NCBI GenBank assembly: GCA_900313775.1
Contig: OMSP01000137.1
Location: forward strand, 1 to 43,249
Length of the DNA stretch: 43,249 nt
Source of the DNA: an uncultured Eubacteriales bacterium
GTDB lineage: Bacteria; Bacillota; Clostridia; Lachnospirales; Lachnospiraceae
Reading direction: 5' to 3'
The notes under the pieces are model-generated. The model worked only from the letters and a program-made list of their open reading frames with translations, was not told where the DNA came from and ran no database searches. Position numbers and translations under genes: made by a program. Positions 6,001 to 14,901 of this stretch are shown here, piece by piece; positions within the stretch are counted from its first letter, which is position 1, and each line of letters starts with the position of its first letter.

Positions 6001-7038
6001 ATGGGTATTATCCTGGCTATTCTTATATTCGGCTTTATCGTGATGTTTCACGAATTCGGCCATTTTATCGTAGCCAAGAAGAGCGGCATACAGGTGTTCG
6101 ACTTTTCGATCGGCTTCGGACCTTCTGTACTACATTGGCAGCGGGGAGAGACGACCTATAATATCAGACCGATCCCCCTGGGCGGTTTTTGCGCGATGGG
6201 AGAGGACAGCGCAGAGGGCGAGAAAGGTAATTTCAATGAAAAGCCAGTCTGGGTGCGGATGCTTGTCATACTGGCCGGTCCGTTTTTTAATTTTATTTTG
6301 GCGTTTCTCATCGGAATCATACTTGTGGGGGCGACGGGTTATGACGAACCCGTTATCGGAGATGTAATGGACAATTATCCGGCGGCCGAGGCCGGCATAC
6401 GACCCGGAGACGAGATCGTCTCCATTAACGGCAAACGGATTCATCTCTGGAGAGAGATAACACTGAATAACGCCATGTATCCGGGGGAGAAAGATGATAT
6501 AGTCTACGAGAGAGACGGCAAGAGACATGAAGTTACGATCACTCCGGTCAAGGGCGAGGACGGTCGTTATATGATGGGCATACAGGCCCGCAAAGAATAT
6601 TATACCAAGGCCAATGTGCTGACTGCGATCCAATACGGATATTATGAGGTCAAATACAGTGTCCGCTCAACAATCGACGGTCTGAAAATGCTTCTCTACC
6701 GCAAAATTGGTATCAAAGAGCTGTCCGGTCCGGTCGGAATAGGAAATCTTGTCAATGATTCTTACCAGGAGAGCCGCAGCTATGGAGTCAAAGCTGTCCT
6801 CATGACGATGCTGTCCATTGCCCTGCTGATTTCGGCCAACCTGGGCGTAATGAACCTTTTGCCTATTCCGGCACTGGACGGAGGACGCCTGCTGTTTCTG
6901 ATCATCGAAGCGGTCAGAAGAAAACGCATACCGCCCGAAAAAGAAGGGATCGTCCATCTGGTCGGCATGGCGTTGCTGTTGATACTCATGGCGATAGTGA
7001 TGTATAATGATATAACGAAAATTATTGCCGGAAGATAA
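6001..7038 (+). CDS. rseP: RIP (site-2) zinc metalloprotease, M50 family
   Basis: HEFGHFIVAKK (HExxH) near the N-terminus. Internal PDZ-like segment (AAEAGIRPGDEIVSINGKRI). C-terminal NLLPIPALDGGRL motif. Multiple TM segments. Confidence 0.9.
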   Translation: MGIILAILIFGFIVMFHEFGHFIVAKKSGIQVFDFSIGFGPSVLHWQRGETTYNIRPIPLGGFCAMGEDSAEGEKGNFNEKPVWVRMLVILAGPFFNFILAFLIGIILVGATGYDEPVIGDVMDNYPAAEAGIRPGDEIVSINGKRIHLWREITLNNAMYPGEKDDIVYERDGKRHEVTITPVKGEDGRYMMGIQARKEYYTKANVLTAIQYGYYEVKYSVRSTIDGLKMLLYRKIGIKELSGPVGIGNLVNDSYQESRSYGVKAVLMTMLSIALLISANLGVMNLLPIPALDGGRLLFLIIEAVRRKRIPPEKEGIVHLVGMALLLILMAIVMYNDITKIIAGR

Positions 7039-7049
7039 AGGTAATTTGA

Positions 7050-10000
7050 TTGAAGAATAAGATCAGAAAAAGTTCAAAAGGCGATTTTTCAGCTGTAAAA
7101 CCGCAGGTAGTCTTTTCTCAGACCAATATCGGTATGACACTTGGAGAGGGAGAGATCTACCGCGGGTCTTTTACTATCAAGAGCACAAACCGTATCAGTG
7201 TGCGTGGGCTGGTCTATGTCTCTTCTAGGCGTGTGACGATAGATGAGACCGGTTTTGACGGGACGGAAAATACGATCCATTACACTTATGATGGGACCGG
7301 TCTGTATCCCGGCGATATCGAGACGGGCACTTTTGATATCGTGTGCAACGCCGGAGAGTATTCGCTTCATTTTGCTGCTTTTGTCGAAAAACCTTTCGTC
7401 ATGACTTCCTACGGCAAGGTGCAGAGCCTGAAGAATTTCGCTCATCTGGCGATGAACGATTATATGGAGGCACACCGGCTTTTTAAGTCCCGCGACTTTT
7501 TTGAGATCCTCAAGTACGAGGATGAACGTGTTTCAGCTCTTTATAAGAATCTGCGCACCTGGTCGCTCGATGAGGAAGCACTCGAGGAATTTCTGGTGGG
7601 AACTAAACAGAAAGAGCGTGTGATGCTCAGTCTGCCAAAGACCCGCAAATCGATCGACTTTTTGAGCGAGACCCGCAAGACGGTCATGGTCGCACAGAAG
7701 AATACATGGGGTTATATTCCTATCGAGATCTCAGTCGACGGAGAGTTTATCCATGTCGATAAGACCCATTTTTCGACTGATGATTTCGTGGGCAATACCT
7801 TTACGCTTGAGTTTGTGATCGACAGAGAAAAGCTCCACGGCGGCCGTAATTTTGCCCGCATAACTCTGCAGACACCTTATCAGGTGCTTCACTATGATGT
7901 GGACGTGCTCGAAGGGCATCATTATTCGGGGCAGCTCATGCAGGCAAAGAGGCTTTACGGCGATATAATCCAAAGCTATCTCCCCTGTGTCTGCGGAAAG
8001 ACGACAGTCGCGGAGTGGATGCCGCAGGCTCTGCAGATGGTTGAGGAGCTTCACGCCCGATATGACGAAGACCCCTTTGTGGATCTGGTACAGGCTCATA
8101 TCTACCTGCGCGGCAACAAGAAAGAGGAGGCGAAATGGATCCTTGACAAGTTCGAATACAACCGGATGATGCCGATCTCACAACCCGAGCTGGCAGCATA
8201 TTATCTGTTTCTTTCGGCTGTTCTTTCCGGGGACAGCAGGCAGATGCGTCATATAGCGGAAGAGCTCGAGAGACTGGAGCTGCGCAATGACGATTCGTGG
8301 ATGATCGTCTGCATGCTGGCTCAGCTATCACCCGCTTACAGAGACTACAGAAACCGGCTGGAGTATCTCAAACACAAATTTGCAAAGCACCGTTTCAATT
8401 CTCTGCTTTTCTTCAAGGAATGCTATATCTGTTATCAGGAGAGCAACGGACTGCTCAGTTCGGTCGGTCCTTTCGAACTGCATGTACTGGAATTTGCCTG
8501 TAAGCGAGGTATCTTTACCGCAGAGCTGGCGGCTCAGCTTGCCTCGCTTATCCCGCAGGTGAGAGAGTACGACGAGCGTCTTTACCGGGTGCTGTGCCGG
8601 GTATACGATATGTATCCCTCTGTGCAGATGCTGTCTGCGATCTGTTCGCTCCTGATCAAACGCCAGACAGCGCGCAGTGAGGATTTTAAATGGTATCAGC
8701 TGGCGGTAGAGGAGAACCTCAGCATTCCGAAACTCTATGAATACTATATGATGACGATCTCTGAGGAGAAAGTAAAGGAGGCGCTGCCGAGATCGATCTA
8801 TCTGTATTTCCTTCACGATGATCTTCCTGATTATCGCAAGAAAGCGCTGCTCTATGCCAATATACTGACATACGAAGAGGAGAGCTCGCCTCTGTTCGCC
8901 GATTATCTGAACCAGATGGAGAGCTTTGCGATGGAACAGCTTCTCAAGCGCCGTATCAACGACAGGCTGCGGATCATTTACAAGCGGTTCTGCAACGAGG
9001 AACTGCTGACGATCGAGCAGATCAACGCGCTCAACGATATCTGTCACGCCTACTCGATCAGCACATCGGCAGGAAACATCCGCCACGTGATGATCCTGGA
9101 CGGAAAAGGCAATCAGGTAGATAAGGTCCCTTATACGGGACCCGGTACTGTCGTGTTCGTGCACGATACGACCTCCAGGATCATATGGGAGTCAAACGAG
9201 GGACGGATGTATTCGGATTCCATACCCTATGAGACAAAGAGACTGTTCTACGAACCGCATTTTATCGAGTTCTGCAAGCATTATCTGGATACCACTCACC
9301 AGGGAGCGGAGGAGCACGCCAACGAGGAAGCGGTCATGCAGACAGTCAGAGATCAGGGATTGGCATCTGCGGATATGGAGACAGCCTTTCAGGCCTGCAC
9401 CAGACGGATCGCGGACGGCGACGGCAGCAAAGACGCTTTTCTCCTGGATCTGGCATATCACCTCTTTGAGAAAGGCATGTATAACAAGACGACGATGTCC
9501 TATCTCAACGCTTATTTCTACGGCGGTTCTCATACAATGAAAAAGATATGGCGTCAGGCGAGAAAATTTGATCTTGCAACTGAAAGTCTGGCGGAGCGCA
9601 TCATCACACAGATGCTCTTTGCGGAGCAGATGGTGACAGAAGAAGATATCTTCTGCAATTACGAGAGAAAGGGAGCTTATTTCAGGTTAAAGCAGGCATA
9701 TTTTGCATACATCTCTCACCAGTATTTTGTGTACGACCGGATCGTTGAACCGAAGATATTTTCCATGATCGCCCAGGAGTTTATTCGCGAAGAAATCCTG
9801 CCGGACATCTGCCGTCTTGCGCTTCTGCGCTATTACAGTGATCATCCGCGTGAGCCTGGTATCAGGGATATTCTGCAGACTTTTATGCAGGATTTTTGCG
9901 AAAAACGCAGCATCTATCCCTGCTTTCTCAAGTATCCGGACAGCTGGAAGAATGCTGTATGTCTGGACGACAAGACCGTCGTATCCTATCAGAGCCGTTT

Positions 10001-10355
10001 CGGGGGGAAAGTGCGGATACATTACAGGGTATTGAGTCCCGGAGATCTGAAGAGCGATATCGACTTCGTATCCGAGGTGCTGATACCTGCTTATGATCAG
10101 ATTTATGTCAAGGTTTTCGTGCTTTTTTTGAGGGAAACTCTGGAGTATTACTTCGAAGAATTCGATGATGAAAAATCAGTTAAGACTGAGCGGTCACAGT
10201 TGCGTGTGGAACGCCAGGAGAGTGTATACGGCAAGTACCACCGCTTAAACCATATGGCGTCGCTGCCTGCTAACAGTCGGGCTAAAGAGCAGGAGATCAG
10301 AGCGTATGCCGAGGAGGAACAGCTGGCCCGTGATCTTTTCAAATTCTATGAATAG
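7050..10355 (+). CDS. Hypothetical giant soluble protein (1101 aa): two N-terminal beta-sandwich-like modules, long helical-repeat body, beta-rich C-terminal module
   Basis: Uninterrupted 3.3-kb ORF. TTG 7050 is the first possible start, because an in-frame TGA sits at 7047-7049; weak AAGG SD 8 nt upstream. I could find no TM segment, signal peptide, P-loop or catalytic motif. From memory it may correspond to the family annotated as DUF5717 in Lachnospiraceae; unverified. Confidence 0.8.
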   Translation: MKNKIRKSSKGDFSAVKPQVVFSQTNIGMTLGEGEIYRGSFTIKSTNRISVRGLVYVSSRRVTIDETGFDGTENTIHYTYDGTGLYPGDIETGTFDIVCNAGEYSLHFAAFVEKPFVMTSYGKVQSLKNFAHLAMNDYMEAHRLFKSRDFFEILKYEDERVSALYKNLRTWSLDEEALEEFLVGTKQKERVMLSLPKTRKSIDFLSETRKTVMVAQKNTWGYIPIEISVDGEFIHVDKTHFSTDDFVGNTFTLEFVIDREKLHGGRNFARITLQTPYQVLHYDVDVLEGHHYSGQLMQAKRLYGDIIQSYLPCVCGKTTVAEWMPQALQMVEELHARYDEDPFVDLVQAHIYLRGNKKEEAKWILDKFEYNRMMPISQPELAAYYLFLSAVLSGDSRQMRHIAEELERLELRNDDSWMIVCMLAQLSPAYRDYRNRLEYLKHKFAKHRFNSLLFFKECYICYQESNGLLSSVGPFELHVLEFACKRGIFTAELAAQLASLIPQVREYDERLYRVLCRVYDMYPSVQMLSAICSLLIKRQTARSEDFKWYQLAVEENLSIPKLYEYYMMTISEEKVKEALPRSIYLYFLHDDLPDYRKKALLYANILTYEEESSPLFADYLNQMESFAMEQLLKRRINDRLRIIYKRFCNEELLTIEQINALNDICHAYSISTSAGNIRHVMILDGKGNQVDKVPYTGPGTVVFVHDTTSRIIWESNEGRMYSDSIPYETKRLFYEPHFIEFCKHYLDTTHQGAEEHANEEAVMQTVRDQGLASADMETAFQACTRRIADGDGSKDAFLLDLAYHLFEKGMYNKTTMSYLNAYFYGGSHTMKKIWRQARKFDLATESLAERIITQMLFAEQMVTEEDIFCNYERKGAYFRLKQAYFAYISHQYFVYDRIVEPKIFSMIAQEFIREEILPDICRLALLRYYSDHPREPGIRDILQTFMQDFCEKRSIYPCFLKYPDSWKNAVCLDDKTVVSYQSRFGGKVRIHYRVLSPGDLKSDIDFVSEVLIPAYDQIYVKVFVLFLRETLEYYFEEFDDEKSVKTERSQLRVERQESVYGKYHRLNHMASLPANSRAKEQEIRAYAEEEQLARDLFKFYE

Positions 10356-10367
10356 AGGGAATGATCA

Positions 10368-11660
10368 GTGACGGAAAAGAGTACAAAATATGTGATCGGT
10401 TACGATCTGAATGATCAGTTCTGCCAGATCAGCTACTTCCATGAGGGTATGGAAGAGCCTATGACACGGGAGGTTCTTGCCGACAATTTCAAGATCCCTC
10501 TCGTCATCGGTACGCTGGACGGCAGATGGGCCTATGGTCAGGAAGCCATGCACCATATGGCAGCAGAGCCGGAGAGGTTCTGTGATCATCTCTTTTCACG
10601 GGCTGTTGCCGGTGAGACAGTCGCTATCACGCGCAGCGAAGTGCCGGCGAACAAACTTCTGGAGAAGTATATCGAGTTATCGCTGAGTGATTACCCGCGC
10701 ATCGATTATCTGGTCTTTTCCGTGCCGGAATTGACGGAAAAAGTCGTGCGTCTGCTCAAACGGATCGGCCGCCATATCGGAGTTGATCCCGACAGGATCA
10801 TTGTGCAGGACTACAAGGAGAGTTTTTGTCAGTTTATGTACGATCAGCCCAAGGAACTCTGGAAATACGAAGCGGCTCTGTTCTACTGCGACAAGGAGAT
10901 GGTCACCGCCTATATGATGAAAAAGGTCGATACGGAATATTCAGCCGACAATACGACCTTCGTCATGGTCGAGGAGGTATCACACGCCAAGATGAGCGAG
11001 CTGCATGTGACTTTCCCCGTCATAAACGTTGAGCTGGCGATGGAAGCGGATATGCGCTTCATGCATTTTGTCGGAGGTGTTTTCGATAAGAGACGCGTTT
11101 CATCCGTGTTTCTGACCGGAGAGGGATTTGAGAGCAACTGGTACCCGGAATCCCTGAAGGTCATGTGCAACGGTCGACGTGTCTTTTTGGGCAATAATCT
11201 GTACAGTAAAGGCGCATGCTATGAGGCAGCGCGCAAAAGCAGCGGACGAAGAGACGGACCGATCTATCTGGACGAGTCGAAAATGACGGACCAGGTGTGT
11301 ATGAAAGTGCGCGTGGGAGAGGAGTTCGAATGGTTCCCGATCATCTCATGGGGAGAGCACTGGTATGAATCGGACTGTGAGTATGAAGTGCTGCTCGAAA
11401 ACGATGACCCGATCGAACTGCGTCAGAATTCGCTGGCGACCGGGGAATCCAAGACGATCGAAGTGGATCTCTCCGGACTGCCGGATCGCAAGAATTATTC
11501 GCTGCGAGTCCTGGTGAGGGCCACTTTTGCAGATGAAAACAGGTGCAGGATCACTTTTAAGGATATGGGATTCGGAGAAATATTCCCTGAGACAGACTTT
11601 TCCAAGGAGATCACGGTAGTGCTGGGAGGAAGCAATGAGCAGTTTAGTACTCTGTCATAA
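10368..11660 (+). CDS. Hsp70/actin-fold (ASKHA) protein with degenerate nucleotide-binding loops plus a C-terminal beta-rich domain; function unknown
   Basis: GTG 10368 with GAGGGA SD 7 nt upstream. By-eye colinearity with the DnaK NBD: KYVIGYDLNDQFCQISY, FKIPLVIGTLDGRWAYGQEA, YLVFSVPELTEKVVRLLKRIGRHIGVD..RIIVQDYKESFCQFMY, ALFYCDKEMVTAYMMK, VFLTGEGFESNWYP. It may correspond to the family annotated as DUF5716; unverified. Confidence 0.8.
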   Translation: MTEKSTKYVIGYDLNDQFCQISYFHEGMEEPMTREVLADNFKIPLVIGTLDGRWAYGQEAMHHMAAEPERFCDHLFSRAVAGETVAITRSEVPANKLLEKYIELSLSDYPRIDYLVFSVPELTEKVVRLLKRIGRHIGVDPDRIIVQDYKESFCQFMYDQPKELWKYEAALFYCDKEMVTAYMMKKVDTEYSADNTTFVMVEEVSHAKMSELHVTFPVINVELAMEADMRFMHFVGGVFDKRRVSSVFLTGEGFESNWYPESLKVMCNGRRVFLGNNLYSKGACYEAARKSSGRRDGPIYLDESKMTDQVCMKVRVGEEFEWFPIISWGEHWYESDCEYEVLLENDDPIELRQNSLATGESKTIEVDLSGLPDRKNYSLRVLVRATFADENRCRITFKDMGFGEIFPETDFSKEITVVLGGSNEQFSTLS

Positions 11661-12402
11661 ACAAAAAGCGACTCAGCCGACCAGGCTCGCCCATATCCGC
11701 TACAAGATATACACATTGGAAGAGCTGGCTTATCTGATGTGTGATAATCTCTACCTGCTCGATCACACTTTGATGGAAGAATCCTTCTGTGCGTGGATTG
11801 AACGCGAATTGGGGCTGTTTCAACTGGCTGACGGTCTGCGTGAGCAGATCGCCAGAAGAGTGTCACTTGAAGAGTTTATCCTCTATTTTCTGTCGCATAC
11901 TCAGATCTATACGCGATCAGAACTGGCCGACATCAAATCTGTGCTCGATGAGCTCGAGGGCCAGGAGGAGGTGGAAAAGCAGAAGCTGAAAGCAGACGAT
12001 CTGCTTGTTCACCGAGAATACGAAAACGCGGTGCTGGCTTATCAGTCGATCTTGGCAGCACAGCGCACAGAAGGCGTGAGCGCGGAGTTTTACGGTAAGG
12101 TCTATGCATGCCTGGGAGCGGCTTACGGACGACTCTTTCTCTACAGGGAGGCCGCAAAAGCCTACAGCGCTGCCTATCAGATCTGTGATGACTATGAGAT
12201 GGTAAGAGCCTATATATACGCCTGCAGGCAATATATGTCAGCTGAAGAATACCATCTGCTGCTTGCGGAGAAAGATCTCTTCAAGGTTGCAGACAAAGAA
12301 AATGCCGCTGCTATCAGCGCGGTGGAGGAAAGCGTGCCGGAGCATATCGATGACAGCGTCATCAACGATTGGAAGAAAACTTATCGTGAGATACCGGTCT
12401 AG
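11635..12402 (+). CDS. Hypothetical protein with C-terminal TPR repeats (255 aa)
   Basis: ATG 11635 with GGGAGGA SD (11624-11630); overlaps the preceding ORF by 26 nt. Residues about 117-205 fit the TPR consensus (for example GKVYACLGAAYGRLFLYREAAKAYSAAYQICDDY). Stop TAG 12400-12402 is embedded in the purB SD. Confidence 0.75.
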   Translation: MSSLVLCHKQKATQPTRLAHIRYKIYTLEELAYLMCDNLYLLDHTLMEESFCAWIERELGLFQLADGLREQIARRVSLEEFILYFLSHTQIYTRSELADIKSVLDELEGQEEVEKQKLKADDLLVHREYENAVLAYQSILAAQRTEGVSAEFYGKVYACLGAAYGRLFLYREAAKAYSAAYQICDDYEMVRAYIYACRQYMSAEEYHLLLAEKDLFKVADKENAAAISAVEESVPEHIDDSVINDWKKTYREIPV

Positions 12403-13847: not shown

Positions 13848-13873
13848 CACAGGTATACAGACTTGTTTGCGAC

Positions 13874-13906
13874 AAGCATGCTCATTGACTTTGAGCATGC
13901 TTTTTT
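13874..13906 (+). terminator. Rho-independent terminator after purB
   Basis: Perfect 10-bp stem aagcatgctc (13874-13883) / gagcatgctt (13893-13902), 9-nt loop, T6 run (13901-13906). Lies 27 nt after the purB stop. Confidence 0.65.
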
Positions 13907-13913
13907 ATATAAT
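13885..13913 (+). promoter_or_regulatory. Candidate sigma-A promoter nested in the purB terminator (drives nnrD-alr...)
   Basis: TTGACT (13885-13890, inside the hairpin loop), exactly 17 nt, TATAAT (13908-13913, immediately after the T-tract). Confidence 0.55.
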
Positions 13914-13923
13914 TATTCTGTAT

Positions 13924-14901
13924 ATGTATGCGTATTTGGAGGGTGGACAAATAGGATATATTGCAACGACAATCGACCCCAGAGAGCTTCTCCCCGTGAG
14001 GAAAGCTGAGAGTCACAAAGGGACTTACGGTCGCGCACTTCTGATCACCGGATCGCCTGGCATGGCCGGCGCAGCTTATCTTGCCGGTATGGCCGCCTAC
14101 AGGTCCGGATGCGGGCTTGTGGAGTTGTTTACTCATGAGTCCAACCGGATCATACTGCAGCAGCTGTTGCCGGAAGCAGTGATGACAGTTTACGGAGATG
14201 AGGATAAAAAGCTGGCCGATAAACTCGAAAAGTCGATTCGGCGTGCGGATTCCGTCGGCCTGGGCTGCGGACTGGGACTGAGCGATCAGGCTGTTGATAT
14301 TGTTCGCAATTCCTGTGAATTTGCCGTGAGCATGCACAAACCACTGCTGGCGGATGCCGACGCAATAACTCTGATTGGCAGGGAAGAGTCTTTGATCAGC
14401 AGTCTGAGGAGGCAGAGTGTTGTCTTTACACCGCACCCGAAAGAAATGACTTCACTTACACATATGCATACGGACGAGATCCTGAGCGACAGAGAGACCA
14501 TCGTTACAAGCTTTTGCTCTGTGTCAGGTACAGTATGTCTGCTCAAAGGCCACAGAACGCTTGTAGGCTCGCCTTCGGGTGCTCTTTACGAGAATCATAC
14601 AGGCAACAGCGGTATGGCGGCCGGGGGCAGCGGCGATGTGCTTTCAGGTCTGATCACAGGTCTTATGGCACAGGGCGTGGATCTGTACGATGCGGCCTGT
14701 CTGGGAGCCTGGATTCATGGTCATGCCGGGGATCTTGCGGCGGAAGACACAGGCGAGCACGCGATGATGGCCAGAGATCTGTTGGAGAGTCTCACGGAAG
14801 CAATGTGGGAACTTGAGCAGGATGAAGATGAATTGGAGGATGACGAATTCGCGGACGATGAATTCGGGTACGACGAGACAGAAGATGAGGATGATGAATA
14901 A
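13924..14901 (+). CDS. nnrD: ADP-dependent NAD(P)H-hydrate dehydratase (stand-alone YjeF-C/NnrD) with an acidic C-terminal tail
   Basis: HKGTYGRALLITGSPGMAGAAYLAGMAAYRSGCGLV, TPHPKEM and GNSGMAAGGSGDVLSGLITGLMAQG motifs. Start is uncertain. The track start TTG 13867 lies upstream of the terminator/promoter and is unlikely. ATG 13924 is the first ATG after the predicted promoter. A GGAGGG at 13938-13943 hints at an even later non-ATG start. Confidence 0.85.
   Translation: MYAYLEGGQIGYIATTIDPRELLPVRKAESHKGTYGRALLITGSPGMAGAAYLAGMAAYRSGCGLVELFTHESNRIILQQLLPEAVMTVYGDEDKKLADKLEKSIRRADSVGLGCGLGLSDQAVDIVRNSCEFAVSMHKPLLADADAITLIGREESLISSLRRQSVVFTPHPKEMTSLTHMHTDEILSDRETIVTSFCSVSGTVCLLKGHRTLVGSPSGALYENHTGNSGMAAGGSGDVLSGLITGLMAQGVDLYDAACLGAWIHGHAGDLAAEDTGEHAMMARDLLESLTEAMWELEQDEDELEDDEFADDEFGYDETEDEDDE

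Follow-up and report, generated by a model that had tools for sequence, protein, structure and literature searches.

The DUF5716 protein of Lachnospiraceae as a probable lidless Hsp70 with degenerate phosphate-binding loops, encoded between DUF5717 and a TPR protein

The subject of this study is a 43,249-nucleotide (nt) stretch of DNA from an uncultured Eubacteriales bacterium of the Lachnospiraceae (contig OMSP01000137.1 of assembly GCA_900313775.1; hereafter the window), and in particular the gene at positions 10368 to 11660, whose product belongs to the domain of unknown function (DUF) family DUF5716. The DUF5716 protein is almost certainly a bona fide, extremely diverged member of the Hsp70 lineage, composed of a homologue of the nucleotide-binding domain (NBD), a hydrophobic linker and the beta subdomain of the substrate-binding domain (SBD-beta), with no lid and with subdomain IIB reduced to about one helix. 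Its gene lies between that of a protein of about 1100 amino acids (aa), DUF5717, and that of a 255-aa tetratricopeptide repeat (TPR) protein. The explanation that we favour as a whole, with slightly more confidence than doubt, is that of a diverged lidless Hsp70 which would act as a nucleotide-independent subunit of a three-protein complex. Hsp70s are the textbook chaperones driven by adenosine triphosphate (ATP), and the known exceptions, Ssz1 and Hsp110, still bind ATP and are eukaryotic. If the proposal is true, bacteria too have converted the Hsp70 body into a nucleotide-independent binding module, and the DUF5716 protein would be the first described bacterial example of a bona fide two-domain Hsp70 paralogue that is free of nucleotide, a counterpart of the 'structural Hsp70' principle of the ribosome-associated complex (RAC). 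The partners are unusual, one being a giant DUF protein and the other a TPR protein that stands where the lid would be, and the DUF5716 family is a large one, set among core genes of the Lachnospiraceae, which rank with the most abundant families in the gut of humans and animals. A two-domain Hsp70 devoid of a nucleotide site in such an abundant gut family would be surprising to chaperone specialists. The analysis also gives a structural identity to Pfam DUFs and leads to testable hypotheses on nucleotide binding, complex formation and a pseudo-substrate segment.

Results

Fold and family profile place the DUF5716 protein among the Hsp70s

An AlphaFold2 model of the full chain, built from an alignment of 30 homologues, has a mean predicted local distance difference test score (pLDDT) of 80.9 and a predicted template modelling score (pTM) of 0.81. 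The top 50 Foldseek matches of this model in the PDB are all Hsp70 or Hsp110 chains, the best being DnaK (7kru_B, E 5e-20, probability 1.0) and the next including BiP, Hsc70, Sse1 and Ssz1; the sequence identity of the DUF5716 protein to DnaK is just 10-15%. The docked, ATP-type states of DnaK (7kru, 7krv and 4b9q; root-mean-square deviation (rmsd) 10-12, query TM-score (TMq) 0.49-0.53) fit the model better than the undocked ADP states (2v7y and 5obv; rmsd 19-21, TMq 0.44-0.48). The kinship is also found at the sequence level, since a profile built from 132 diverse homologues (24-72% identity to the window protein) retrieves DnaK chains from the PDB sequences with E-values of 1.5e-5 (4rtf_D) to 4e-4 and lays residues 6-195 on DnaK 34-215. 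An hhalign comparison of the family with E. coli DnaK agrees for this region; only the N-terminal half of the NBD is aligned (47% probability), and the comparison serves as corroboration only. The initial annotation had laid the N-terminal part on the DnaK NBD segment by segment and had assigned it the fold of Hsp70 and actin (the acetate and sugar kinase/Hsc70/actin, or ASKHA, fold); its pairings for the N-terminal three-fifths are recovered by the profile alignment, and the nearest subfamily by fold and profile is Hsp70, not actin, MreB or ParM.

Single sequences reveal far less of this relationship. A phmmer search with the DUF5716 protein returned no match among the PDB sequences, the window protein does not match Pfam HSP70 (PF00012) at E <= 1, and just two of 106 family members scanned singly do so, with a best E-value of 0.0022. 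HSP70 is the sole Pfam family besides DUF5716_C that recurs beyond chance among these 106 members. It is because such single-member scans barely touch HSP70 that the family is still a DUF.

A substrate-binding beta domain without a lid

Residues 294-430, modelled alone, give a pLDDT of 83.9, and all but a few of the top 46 PDB matches of this domain are substrate-binding domains of Hsp70s, among them Kar2 (3h0x), DnaK (3dpp and 1dkz), human Hsp70, BiP, mortalin and HscA. The probabilities are about 1.0 and the TMq values 0.55-0.59, with E-values that are modest (3e-3 and up), as is to be expected of a beta-sandwich of 137 residues. A second stretch of the profile alignment, colinear with the first and individually weak, sets the family pattern LxGLPxRP...TRL...DLGFGE on DnaK LTGIPPAPRG...QIEVTF...KDKGTGK, that is, on the SBD-beta signature of strands beta6-beta8. 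The first reading of the sequence had gone as far as a beta-rich C-terminal domain in the place of the Hsp70 substrate-binding domain. Its coordinates were right (nt about 11250-11657), and the present evidence goes further, to an SBD-beta fold that shares the GIPPAP...DxGxG pattern with DnaK.

Between the two domains of the model lies the segment P-I-Y-L-D-E-S-K, whose Y300, L301 and D302 are invariant in the close clade and which is probably the counterpart of the Hsp70 VLLLD linker. Only 12 residues follow the final strand of SBD-beta, and no C-terminal helices appear in the model; the protein therefore has no helical lid.

The phosphate-binding loops are lost across the family

Residues were mapped to DnaK by the PDB alignments of the family profile and by hairpins of the model, and their frequencies were counted over the 132 diverse sequences. 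In the phosphate-1 loop, DnaK D8 corresponds to D13 (Asp or Glu in 130/132), G10 to N15 (Gly in 36/132), and T11 and T12 to D16 and Q17, where Thr is almost never found and the family mostly has Asp, Asn, Glu or Lys. DnaK K70 falls on F76 in the HMMER alignment or on D73 in that of hhalign, and neither position has a conserved Lys. The position of E171 is taken by D148 (D 55, S 39, E 5), close to the highly conserved E151 and S152. In the phosphate-2 hairpin, whose turn at 175-177 is visible in the model, D194 corresponds to Y173 (Asp or Glu in 88/132, Tyr in the clade of the window), and G196-G198 and T199 to D175, K176, E177 and M178, with no conserved Gly. The adenosine-loop region has G251 in 132/132, G253 in 95/132, F254 in 127/132 and W258 in 126/132; it was paired with DnaK VILVGGQTRMP by fold position and not by alignment, and strand 244-251 followed by a helix reproduces the Hsp70 layout in the model. 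A nearly invariant helix motif, G275-x-N277-L-Y-S-K-G282-A283, follows. Subdomain IIB, about 80 residues long in DnaK, is cut to about 35 (residues about 209-243), with one modelled helix at 221-239.

The initial annotation had located both phosphate-loop remnants correctly (Table 1) and had described all three loops as degenerate. Its description holds for the two phosphate loops, and holds across the family; it goes too far for the adenosine loop and for the acid equivalent to D8. IIB, which it had put at roughly half the DnaK length, is shortened as claimed, but to less than half. Because the Gly/Thr phosphate loops are lost, the K70 position has no conserved Lys, both loops carry acidic residues and IIB is truncated, we strongly infer from the sequence that the DUF5716 protein is probably unable to bind or hydrolyse ATP.

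A TPR protein is coupled or fused at the lid position

In 79 of 80 Lachnospiraceae loci the gene directly downstream of DUF5716 encodes the 255-aa protein, and the one exception ends at a contig edge. Several distant relatives have DUF5716 proteins of 687-737 aa, whose extra C-terminal half aligns end-to-end with the 255-aa protein of the window, from the first residues of the latter (BLASTP E 1e-22 and 5e-21); in these fusions the TPR protein sits exactly at the position of the Hsp70 lid. By invariant gene order and natural fusions, the TPR protein is tied functionally to the DUF5716 gene. A single-sequence Pfam search with the 255-aa protein gave nothing significant, whereas the family profile matches a consensus TPR best among PDB sequences (E 1e-12), followed by Sti1 (3uq3, 2.7e-5) and also FKBP51 and Tah1, and Pfam TPR models match 11 of 23 family members. 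The downstream neighbour is thus a TPR protein, as had been proposed, and the notion of a non-canonical Hsp70-type module encoded with it is supported by fold, profile, SBD-beta, family-wide motif loss and this neighbour.

The repeats occupy residues about 100-222 of the partner (nt about 11932-12300). Its N-terminus carries a conserved hydrophobic and basic segment, SLVLCHK in the window, which reads SL[IV]LC[HRK] in the split forms and RLIFCK, GLIFCR or ELYLCR in the fusions, and next to it lie about 100 residues of helical character, for which no relatives were detected. Homology of the TPR protein to the Hsp70 lid was considered and dropped, its N-terminal 100 residues having no detectable PDB match.

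The two genes meet in an overlap where the GGAGG site and the ATG of the TPR gene are both present in 79/79 loci and the 26-nt length is kept in 78/79. The nucleotides of the junction, TTAGGAGGAAGCAATGGGCAGTTTAATTCTTTGTCATAA (window 11617-11660), are nearly invariant across genera. The conserved DUF5716 tail, LGGSNxQFxxLS, was weighed as an EEVD-like TPR-docking motif and rejected in view of the embedded GGAGG and ATG: it is conserved because it doubles as the ribosome-binding site and start codon of the next gene. A programmed frameshift joining the two genes was likewise dropped, the TPR frame having a stop at 11617-11619; since a strong ribosome-binding site and an ATG are present in 79/79 loci, ordinary translational coupling suffices. 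The junction looks like a scar left when an ancestral fused gene was split, or else like a fusion seam.

DUF5717 as the other constant partner

DUF5717 is encoded directly upstream of DUF5716 in 80/80 genome loci and is still adjacent in relatives at 25-30% identity; it is as constant a partner as the TPR protein. It has no signal peptide, and to judge from its composition the N-terminal segments may be rich in beta structure, with long helical regions after them. The profile of the DUF5717 family found no sequence relative in the PDB. Its first residues, MKNKIKKFSKGDF (window 7050-7100), are almost invariant over 17 sequences, down to 26% identity, with K2 and G11 invariant and K4, I5 and K10 conserved in at least 90%. 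This short basic N-terminus could be another docking peptide, for SBD-beta or for the TPR domain.

Cataloguing, distribution and constraint

The open reading frame first proposed at these positions is real, and an AGGGA ribosome-binding site stands 7-8 nt upstream of its GTG start. The gene is the middle one of a tight block of three (Table 1). Its product scores 318 bits against PF18980 (gathering cut-off 34.7), an entry matched by 106/106 diverse DUF5716 homologues, which spans residues 115-416 and so straddles NBD lobe II and SBD-beta, ignoring the domain boundaries. The Pfam entries of DUF5716 and DUF5717 (PF18980, PF18984 and PF18983) have no assigned function, public sources name the homologues only 'DUF5716 family protein', and an NCBIfam scan gave no meaningful match. 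A literature search on DUF5716 and DUF5717, on their Pfam accessions and on ASKHA proteins or atypical Hsp70s in Clostridia found nothing relevant. The family is therefore already in the Pfam catalogue, yet undescribed, and nothing in the literature searched appears to anticipate its identification as a lidless Hsp70 that has lost the phosphate loops and is accompanied by a giant DUF protein and, in the place of the lid, by a TPR protein.

Relatives form 1038 clusters at 50% identity (E <= 1e-3) and are encoded in at least 572 species-representative genomes, all the named ones being Lachnospiraceae. The ratio of non-synonymous to synonymous substitution rates (dN/dS) between close species pairs is 0.02-0.06, with a median of 0.044, which shows the protein to be functional and under constraint at the housekeeping level.

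Discussion

Proposed mechanism and alternatives

The mechanism that we propose involves no ATP cycle: the DUF5716 protein would be an Ssz1-like structural Hsp70 subunit of a DUF5716-DUF5717-TPR complex, a proposal to which we give a little less than an even chance. The ATP cycle would have been abandoned, both phosphate loops being acidic and without Gly or Thr, the catalytic Lys gone and half of the adenine-binding wall missing. The protein would then be a fixed shell in the docked, 'ATP-like' geometry, whose SBD-beta could act as a peptide- or strand-binding module, and it would be a stoichiometric subunit of a stable cytoplasmic complex with the DUF5717 and TPR proteins. The TPR protein would occupy the place of the missing lid, and its N-terminal SL[IV]LC[HRK] may bind SBD-beta as a built-in pseudo-substrate or an added strand, as the N-terminus of Zuo1 does in Ssz1. 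The cassette would be a vertically inherited housekeeping feature of Lachnospiraceae, with expression presumably driven in most genera by a promoter of the sigma-A type. Taken to its full extent, namely a nucleotide-free docked Hsp70 shell that clamps the N-terminal strand of a lid-replacing TPR partner and forms, with the DUF5717 scaffold, a constitutive Lachnospiraceae-specific machine, the scheme is tentative and rather doubtful.

Several observations weigh against this reading. The site is not wholly erased, since the D8-equivalent is acidic in nearly all sequences and the D194-equivalent in 88/132, and G251 never varies, while conservation is high at E151/S152; the protein may therefore retain a metal or nucleotide site, or accommodate a different ligand. 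The likeness to the docked state derives from a predicted model, whose alignment held 30 sequences and whose lobe II is of moderate confidence (pLDDT 52-78 for residues 160-280). Physical contact of the DUF5716 protein with its neighbours is deduced from gene order and fusion only. Neither a recognisable carboxylate clamp in the TPR protein, whose clamp Asn position is aligned with the invariant D121, nor an EEVD-like motif in the tail of the window protein (...GGSNEQFSTLS) is present, so that the eukaryotic mode of Hsp70-TPR docking is inapplicable. A Pfam scan of the three cassette proteins found no DnaJ or GrpE domain, and with no J-domain partner in the cassette the parallel with RAC is only partial.

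These persisting features bear most directly on the alternative of an Hsp70 that is still regulated by nucleotide, which would bind ATP, another nucleotide or another ligand through compensating residues, cycle between docked and undocked states and serve as a specialised chaperone for DUF5717 or another client. Such a protein would account for the first magnesium-coordinating Asp, kept in 130/132 with the second acid in two thirds of the family, for the adenosine-loop GxG and the invariant or nearly invariant G275, N277, G282 and A283, and for the conserved E151/S152 and hydrophobic linker. It would have to manage, however, with two backbone-amide phosphate loops that have no Gly or Thr and carry Asp, Glu and Lys instead, with no conserved Lys at either K70 candidate and a Tyr for D194 in the clade of the window, with about 35 residues left of the subdomain that forms the adenine pocket and the GrpE site, and with no J-domain or GrpE-like gene in the cassette; we consider it unlikely, though of some weight. 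A cytoskeletal or polymerising protein of the ParM, MreB or FtsA type shares the ASKHA fold and would suit a housekeeping chromosomal setting near the envelope genes uppS, cdsA, rseP and ftsK. The top structural and sequence matches are nevertheless all Hsp70, an Hsp70-specific SBD-beta and linker are present, and ATP-driven polymerisation is incompatible with the loss of the phosphate loops, which leaves very little room for an actin-like protein.

Conflict systems commonly combine a large multidomain protein with a TPR protein and an NTPase-like fold, a pattern that the gene set of the cassette resembles, so that an anti-phage defence system or mobile island with an Hsp70-like sensor, TPR and large scaffold proteins was also weighed. 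It is hardly more probable than the actin-like protein: PADLOC has no match for any of the three proteins (E <= 1), no integrase or transposase gene occurs in the window or the examined flanks, the distribution is vertical within a single lineage with conserved neighbours, purifying selection is very strong and the composition is unremarkable. Chance or convergent resemblance, or a decaying dnaK pseudogene, might be suspected from the 10-15% identity to DnaK and the empty single-sequence searches. This can be practically dismissed given that independent profile and structural evidence is colinear for both domains and that the frame is intact in hundreds of species at a dN/dS of about 0.04. A diverged, lidless Hsp70 working without nucleotide in a complex with its two neighbours is thus the explanation that we retain.

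Comparison with known Hsp70 systems

DnaK provides the best structural and sequence matches, and the DUF5716 protein shares with it the NBD fold, the order of secondary structures, the hydrophobic linker and an SBD-beta with a GIPPAP...DxGxG-type signature. Unlike DnaK, it has no SBD-alpha lid and no disordered tail, its IIB is about one helix, the Gly/Thr loops of phosphate-1 and -2 and K70 are missing, and it stays below the Pfam HSP70 threshold. Its gene stands outside the hrcA-grpE-dnaK-dnaJ context, with DUF5717 and the TPR protein as partners in place of DnaJ and GrpE.

The closest parallel is Ssz1 of RAC, which is lidless and binds ATP without hydrolysing it, its SBD-beta being completed and occupied by the N-terminal pseudo-substrate of Zuo1 (PMC7083937). 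The DUF5716 protein is also lidless in the model and, to judge from its motifs, has probably lost hydrolysis; the RAC structures 6sr6, 5mb9 and 7x3k are among the fold matches of its model. Ssz1 is a subunit of a stable complex, and gene order and fusion suggest a partnership for DUF5716, with a partner that carries a conserved N-terminal segment (SL[IV]LC in the TPR protein), for which a pseudo-substrate role may be proposed by analogy. Ssz1 differs in that it still binds ATP and keeps near-canonical loops, which are gone in DUF5716, and in that its partner is a J-domain protein on the ribosome, whereas no J domain was detected in the TPR protein and the 1100-aa DUF; Ssz1 is moreover eukaryotic and the DUF5716 protein bacterial.

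Hsp110/Grp170 (Sse1) and the atypical bacterial proteins HscC and YegD are other diverged members of the Hsp70 superfamily in which ATP hydrolysis is altered or dispensable, and Sse1 (2qxl and 3d2e) is among the top fold matches of the DUF5716 model. Hsp110 is a larger protein, an exchange factor that still binds nucleotide and has a lid; HscC retains the motifs and the lid, YegD is without any SBD, and none of them is known to be paired with DUF5717 or a TPR protein. Hop/Sti1, CHIP, FKBP51 and Tah1, which are eukaryotic TPR co-chaperones of Hsp70 and Hsp90, resemble the TPR partner in pairing a short module, with some three repeats, with a protein of the Hsp70 type. In contrast to them, the best profile matches of the partner are generic consensus TPRs and its clamp Asn position is aligned with D121, DUF5716 has no EEVD tail, and recruitment via a tail is replaced by fusion or coupling of the TPR protein where the lid would be.

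Genomic setting and further observations

The window is a run of core genes, all on the plus strand and of even composition throughout, with xdhC, pyrH, frr, uppS, cdsA, dxr and rseP upstream of the cassette and purB, nnrD, alr, corC, yebC, ftsK, folD, phoH, miaB, mutS and mutL downstream; Rfam and tRNA scans of the window were empty. In most relatives the cassette stands between a divergently transcribed class I/II aminotransferase gene and purine genes (purB), and the chromosomal neighbours are kept across 25-70% identity. The recurrence of these flanking genes argues for vertical inheritance and not for mobility.

Table 1. Features of the DUF5716 cassette and its surroundings (window positions)
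Feature	Position	Strand	Remarks
Possible internal promoter TTGATA-18-TATAAT	6979..7008	+	consensus scan 11/12; pattern match only, in coding sequence
DUF5717 gene	7050..10355	+	1101 aa; Pfam DUF5717_N E 2e-206, DUF5717 E 1e-84
DUF5716 gene	10368..11660	+	GTG start, 430 aa; Pfam DUF5716_C E 5e-95
NBD homologue	10368..11246	+	residues 1 to about 293; profile alignment, hhalign, model secondary structure
Phosphate-1 remnant D13-L-N-D-Q-F-C19	10404..10424	+	DnaK D8-L-G-T-T-N-S
Phosphate-2 hairpin remnant Y173-C-D-K-E-M-V-T-A181	10884..10910	+	DnaK D194-L-G-G-G-T-F-D-I
Adenosine-loop homologue V247-F-L-T-G-E-G-F-E-S-N-W-Y-P260	11106..11147	+	least degenerate of the three loops
Probable interdomain linker homologue P298-I-Y-L-D-E-S-K305	11259..11282	+	DnaK VLLLDVTP; between NBD and SBD-beta in the model
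SBD-beta	11283..11621	+	domain-only AlphaFold2 model, Foldseek, motif alignment
Translational-coupling junction	11625..11660	+	GGAGG 11625-11629 and ATG 11635 inside the last 12 DUF5716 codons
TPR partner gene	11635..12402	+	255 aa; 26-nt overlap with the DUF5716 gene

In 52 of 70 relatives DUF5717 is preceded, at a distance of about 50 nt, by a conserved promoter of the sigma-A type (TTGCCA, about 17 nt, TGCTATAAT), for example at L011:6540-6667 and in 51 other loci such as L003, L014, L015, L022 and L033. A near-perfect palindrome, ATGCTATAATTTATTATAGTAT, encloses the -10 element and could serve a regulator as operator; a conserved leader, AAAATGCAACGAAAGAAGCAGGTG, follows downstream. Heat-shock regulation was considered and dropped, the conserved promoter region of the relatives having no sequence like that of CIRCE (controlling inverted repeat of chaperone expression) or CtsR sites. 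The lineage of the window has none of the promoter, palindrome and leader found in the relatives; here the cassette begins 11 nt after rseP, and the possible internal promoter of Table 1, in the 3' part of rseP, precedes the start of DUF5717 by 40 nt. Downstream there is a single strong terminator-like hairpin, at 13874-13902 after purB, with an 11-bp stem and a T-run, so that this organism may transcribe the cassette together with purB.

Some distant cassettes have a fourth gene after the TPR gene or the fusion (L085:11219-12451 and L081:5794-6990). The product, about 400 aa long, is acidic at its N-terminus and contains long stretches that resemble coiled coils as well as a pair of neighbouring hydrophobic helices; it has no Pfam match, its two copies share 36% identity, and the gene is absent from the window and the 80 closer loci. 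It may anchor the complex to the membrane or be one of its clients. In one distant relative the gene after the cassette (L083:11140-18111) encodes a protein of 2323 aa that carries a hydrophobic segment near its N-terminus and for which no Pfam match is on record. Finally, in the window, the last 30 or so residues of the NAD(P)H-hydrate dehydratase homologue (13867-14901) form a tail of unusual acidity, LEQDEDELEDDEFADDEFGYDETEDEDDE (window 14790-14901), which overlaps the mechanically called TTG start (14813) of the alanine racemase reading frame; the real alr start is therefore probably further downstream.

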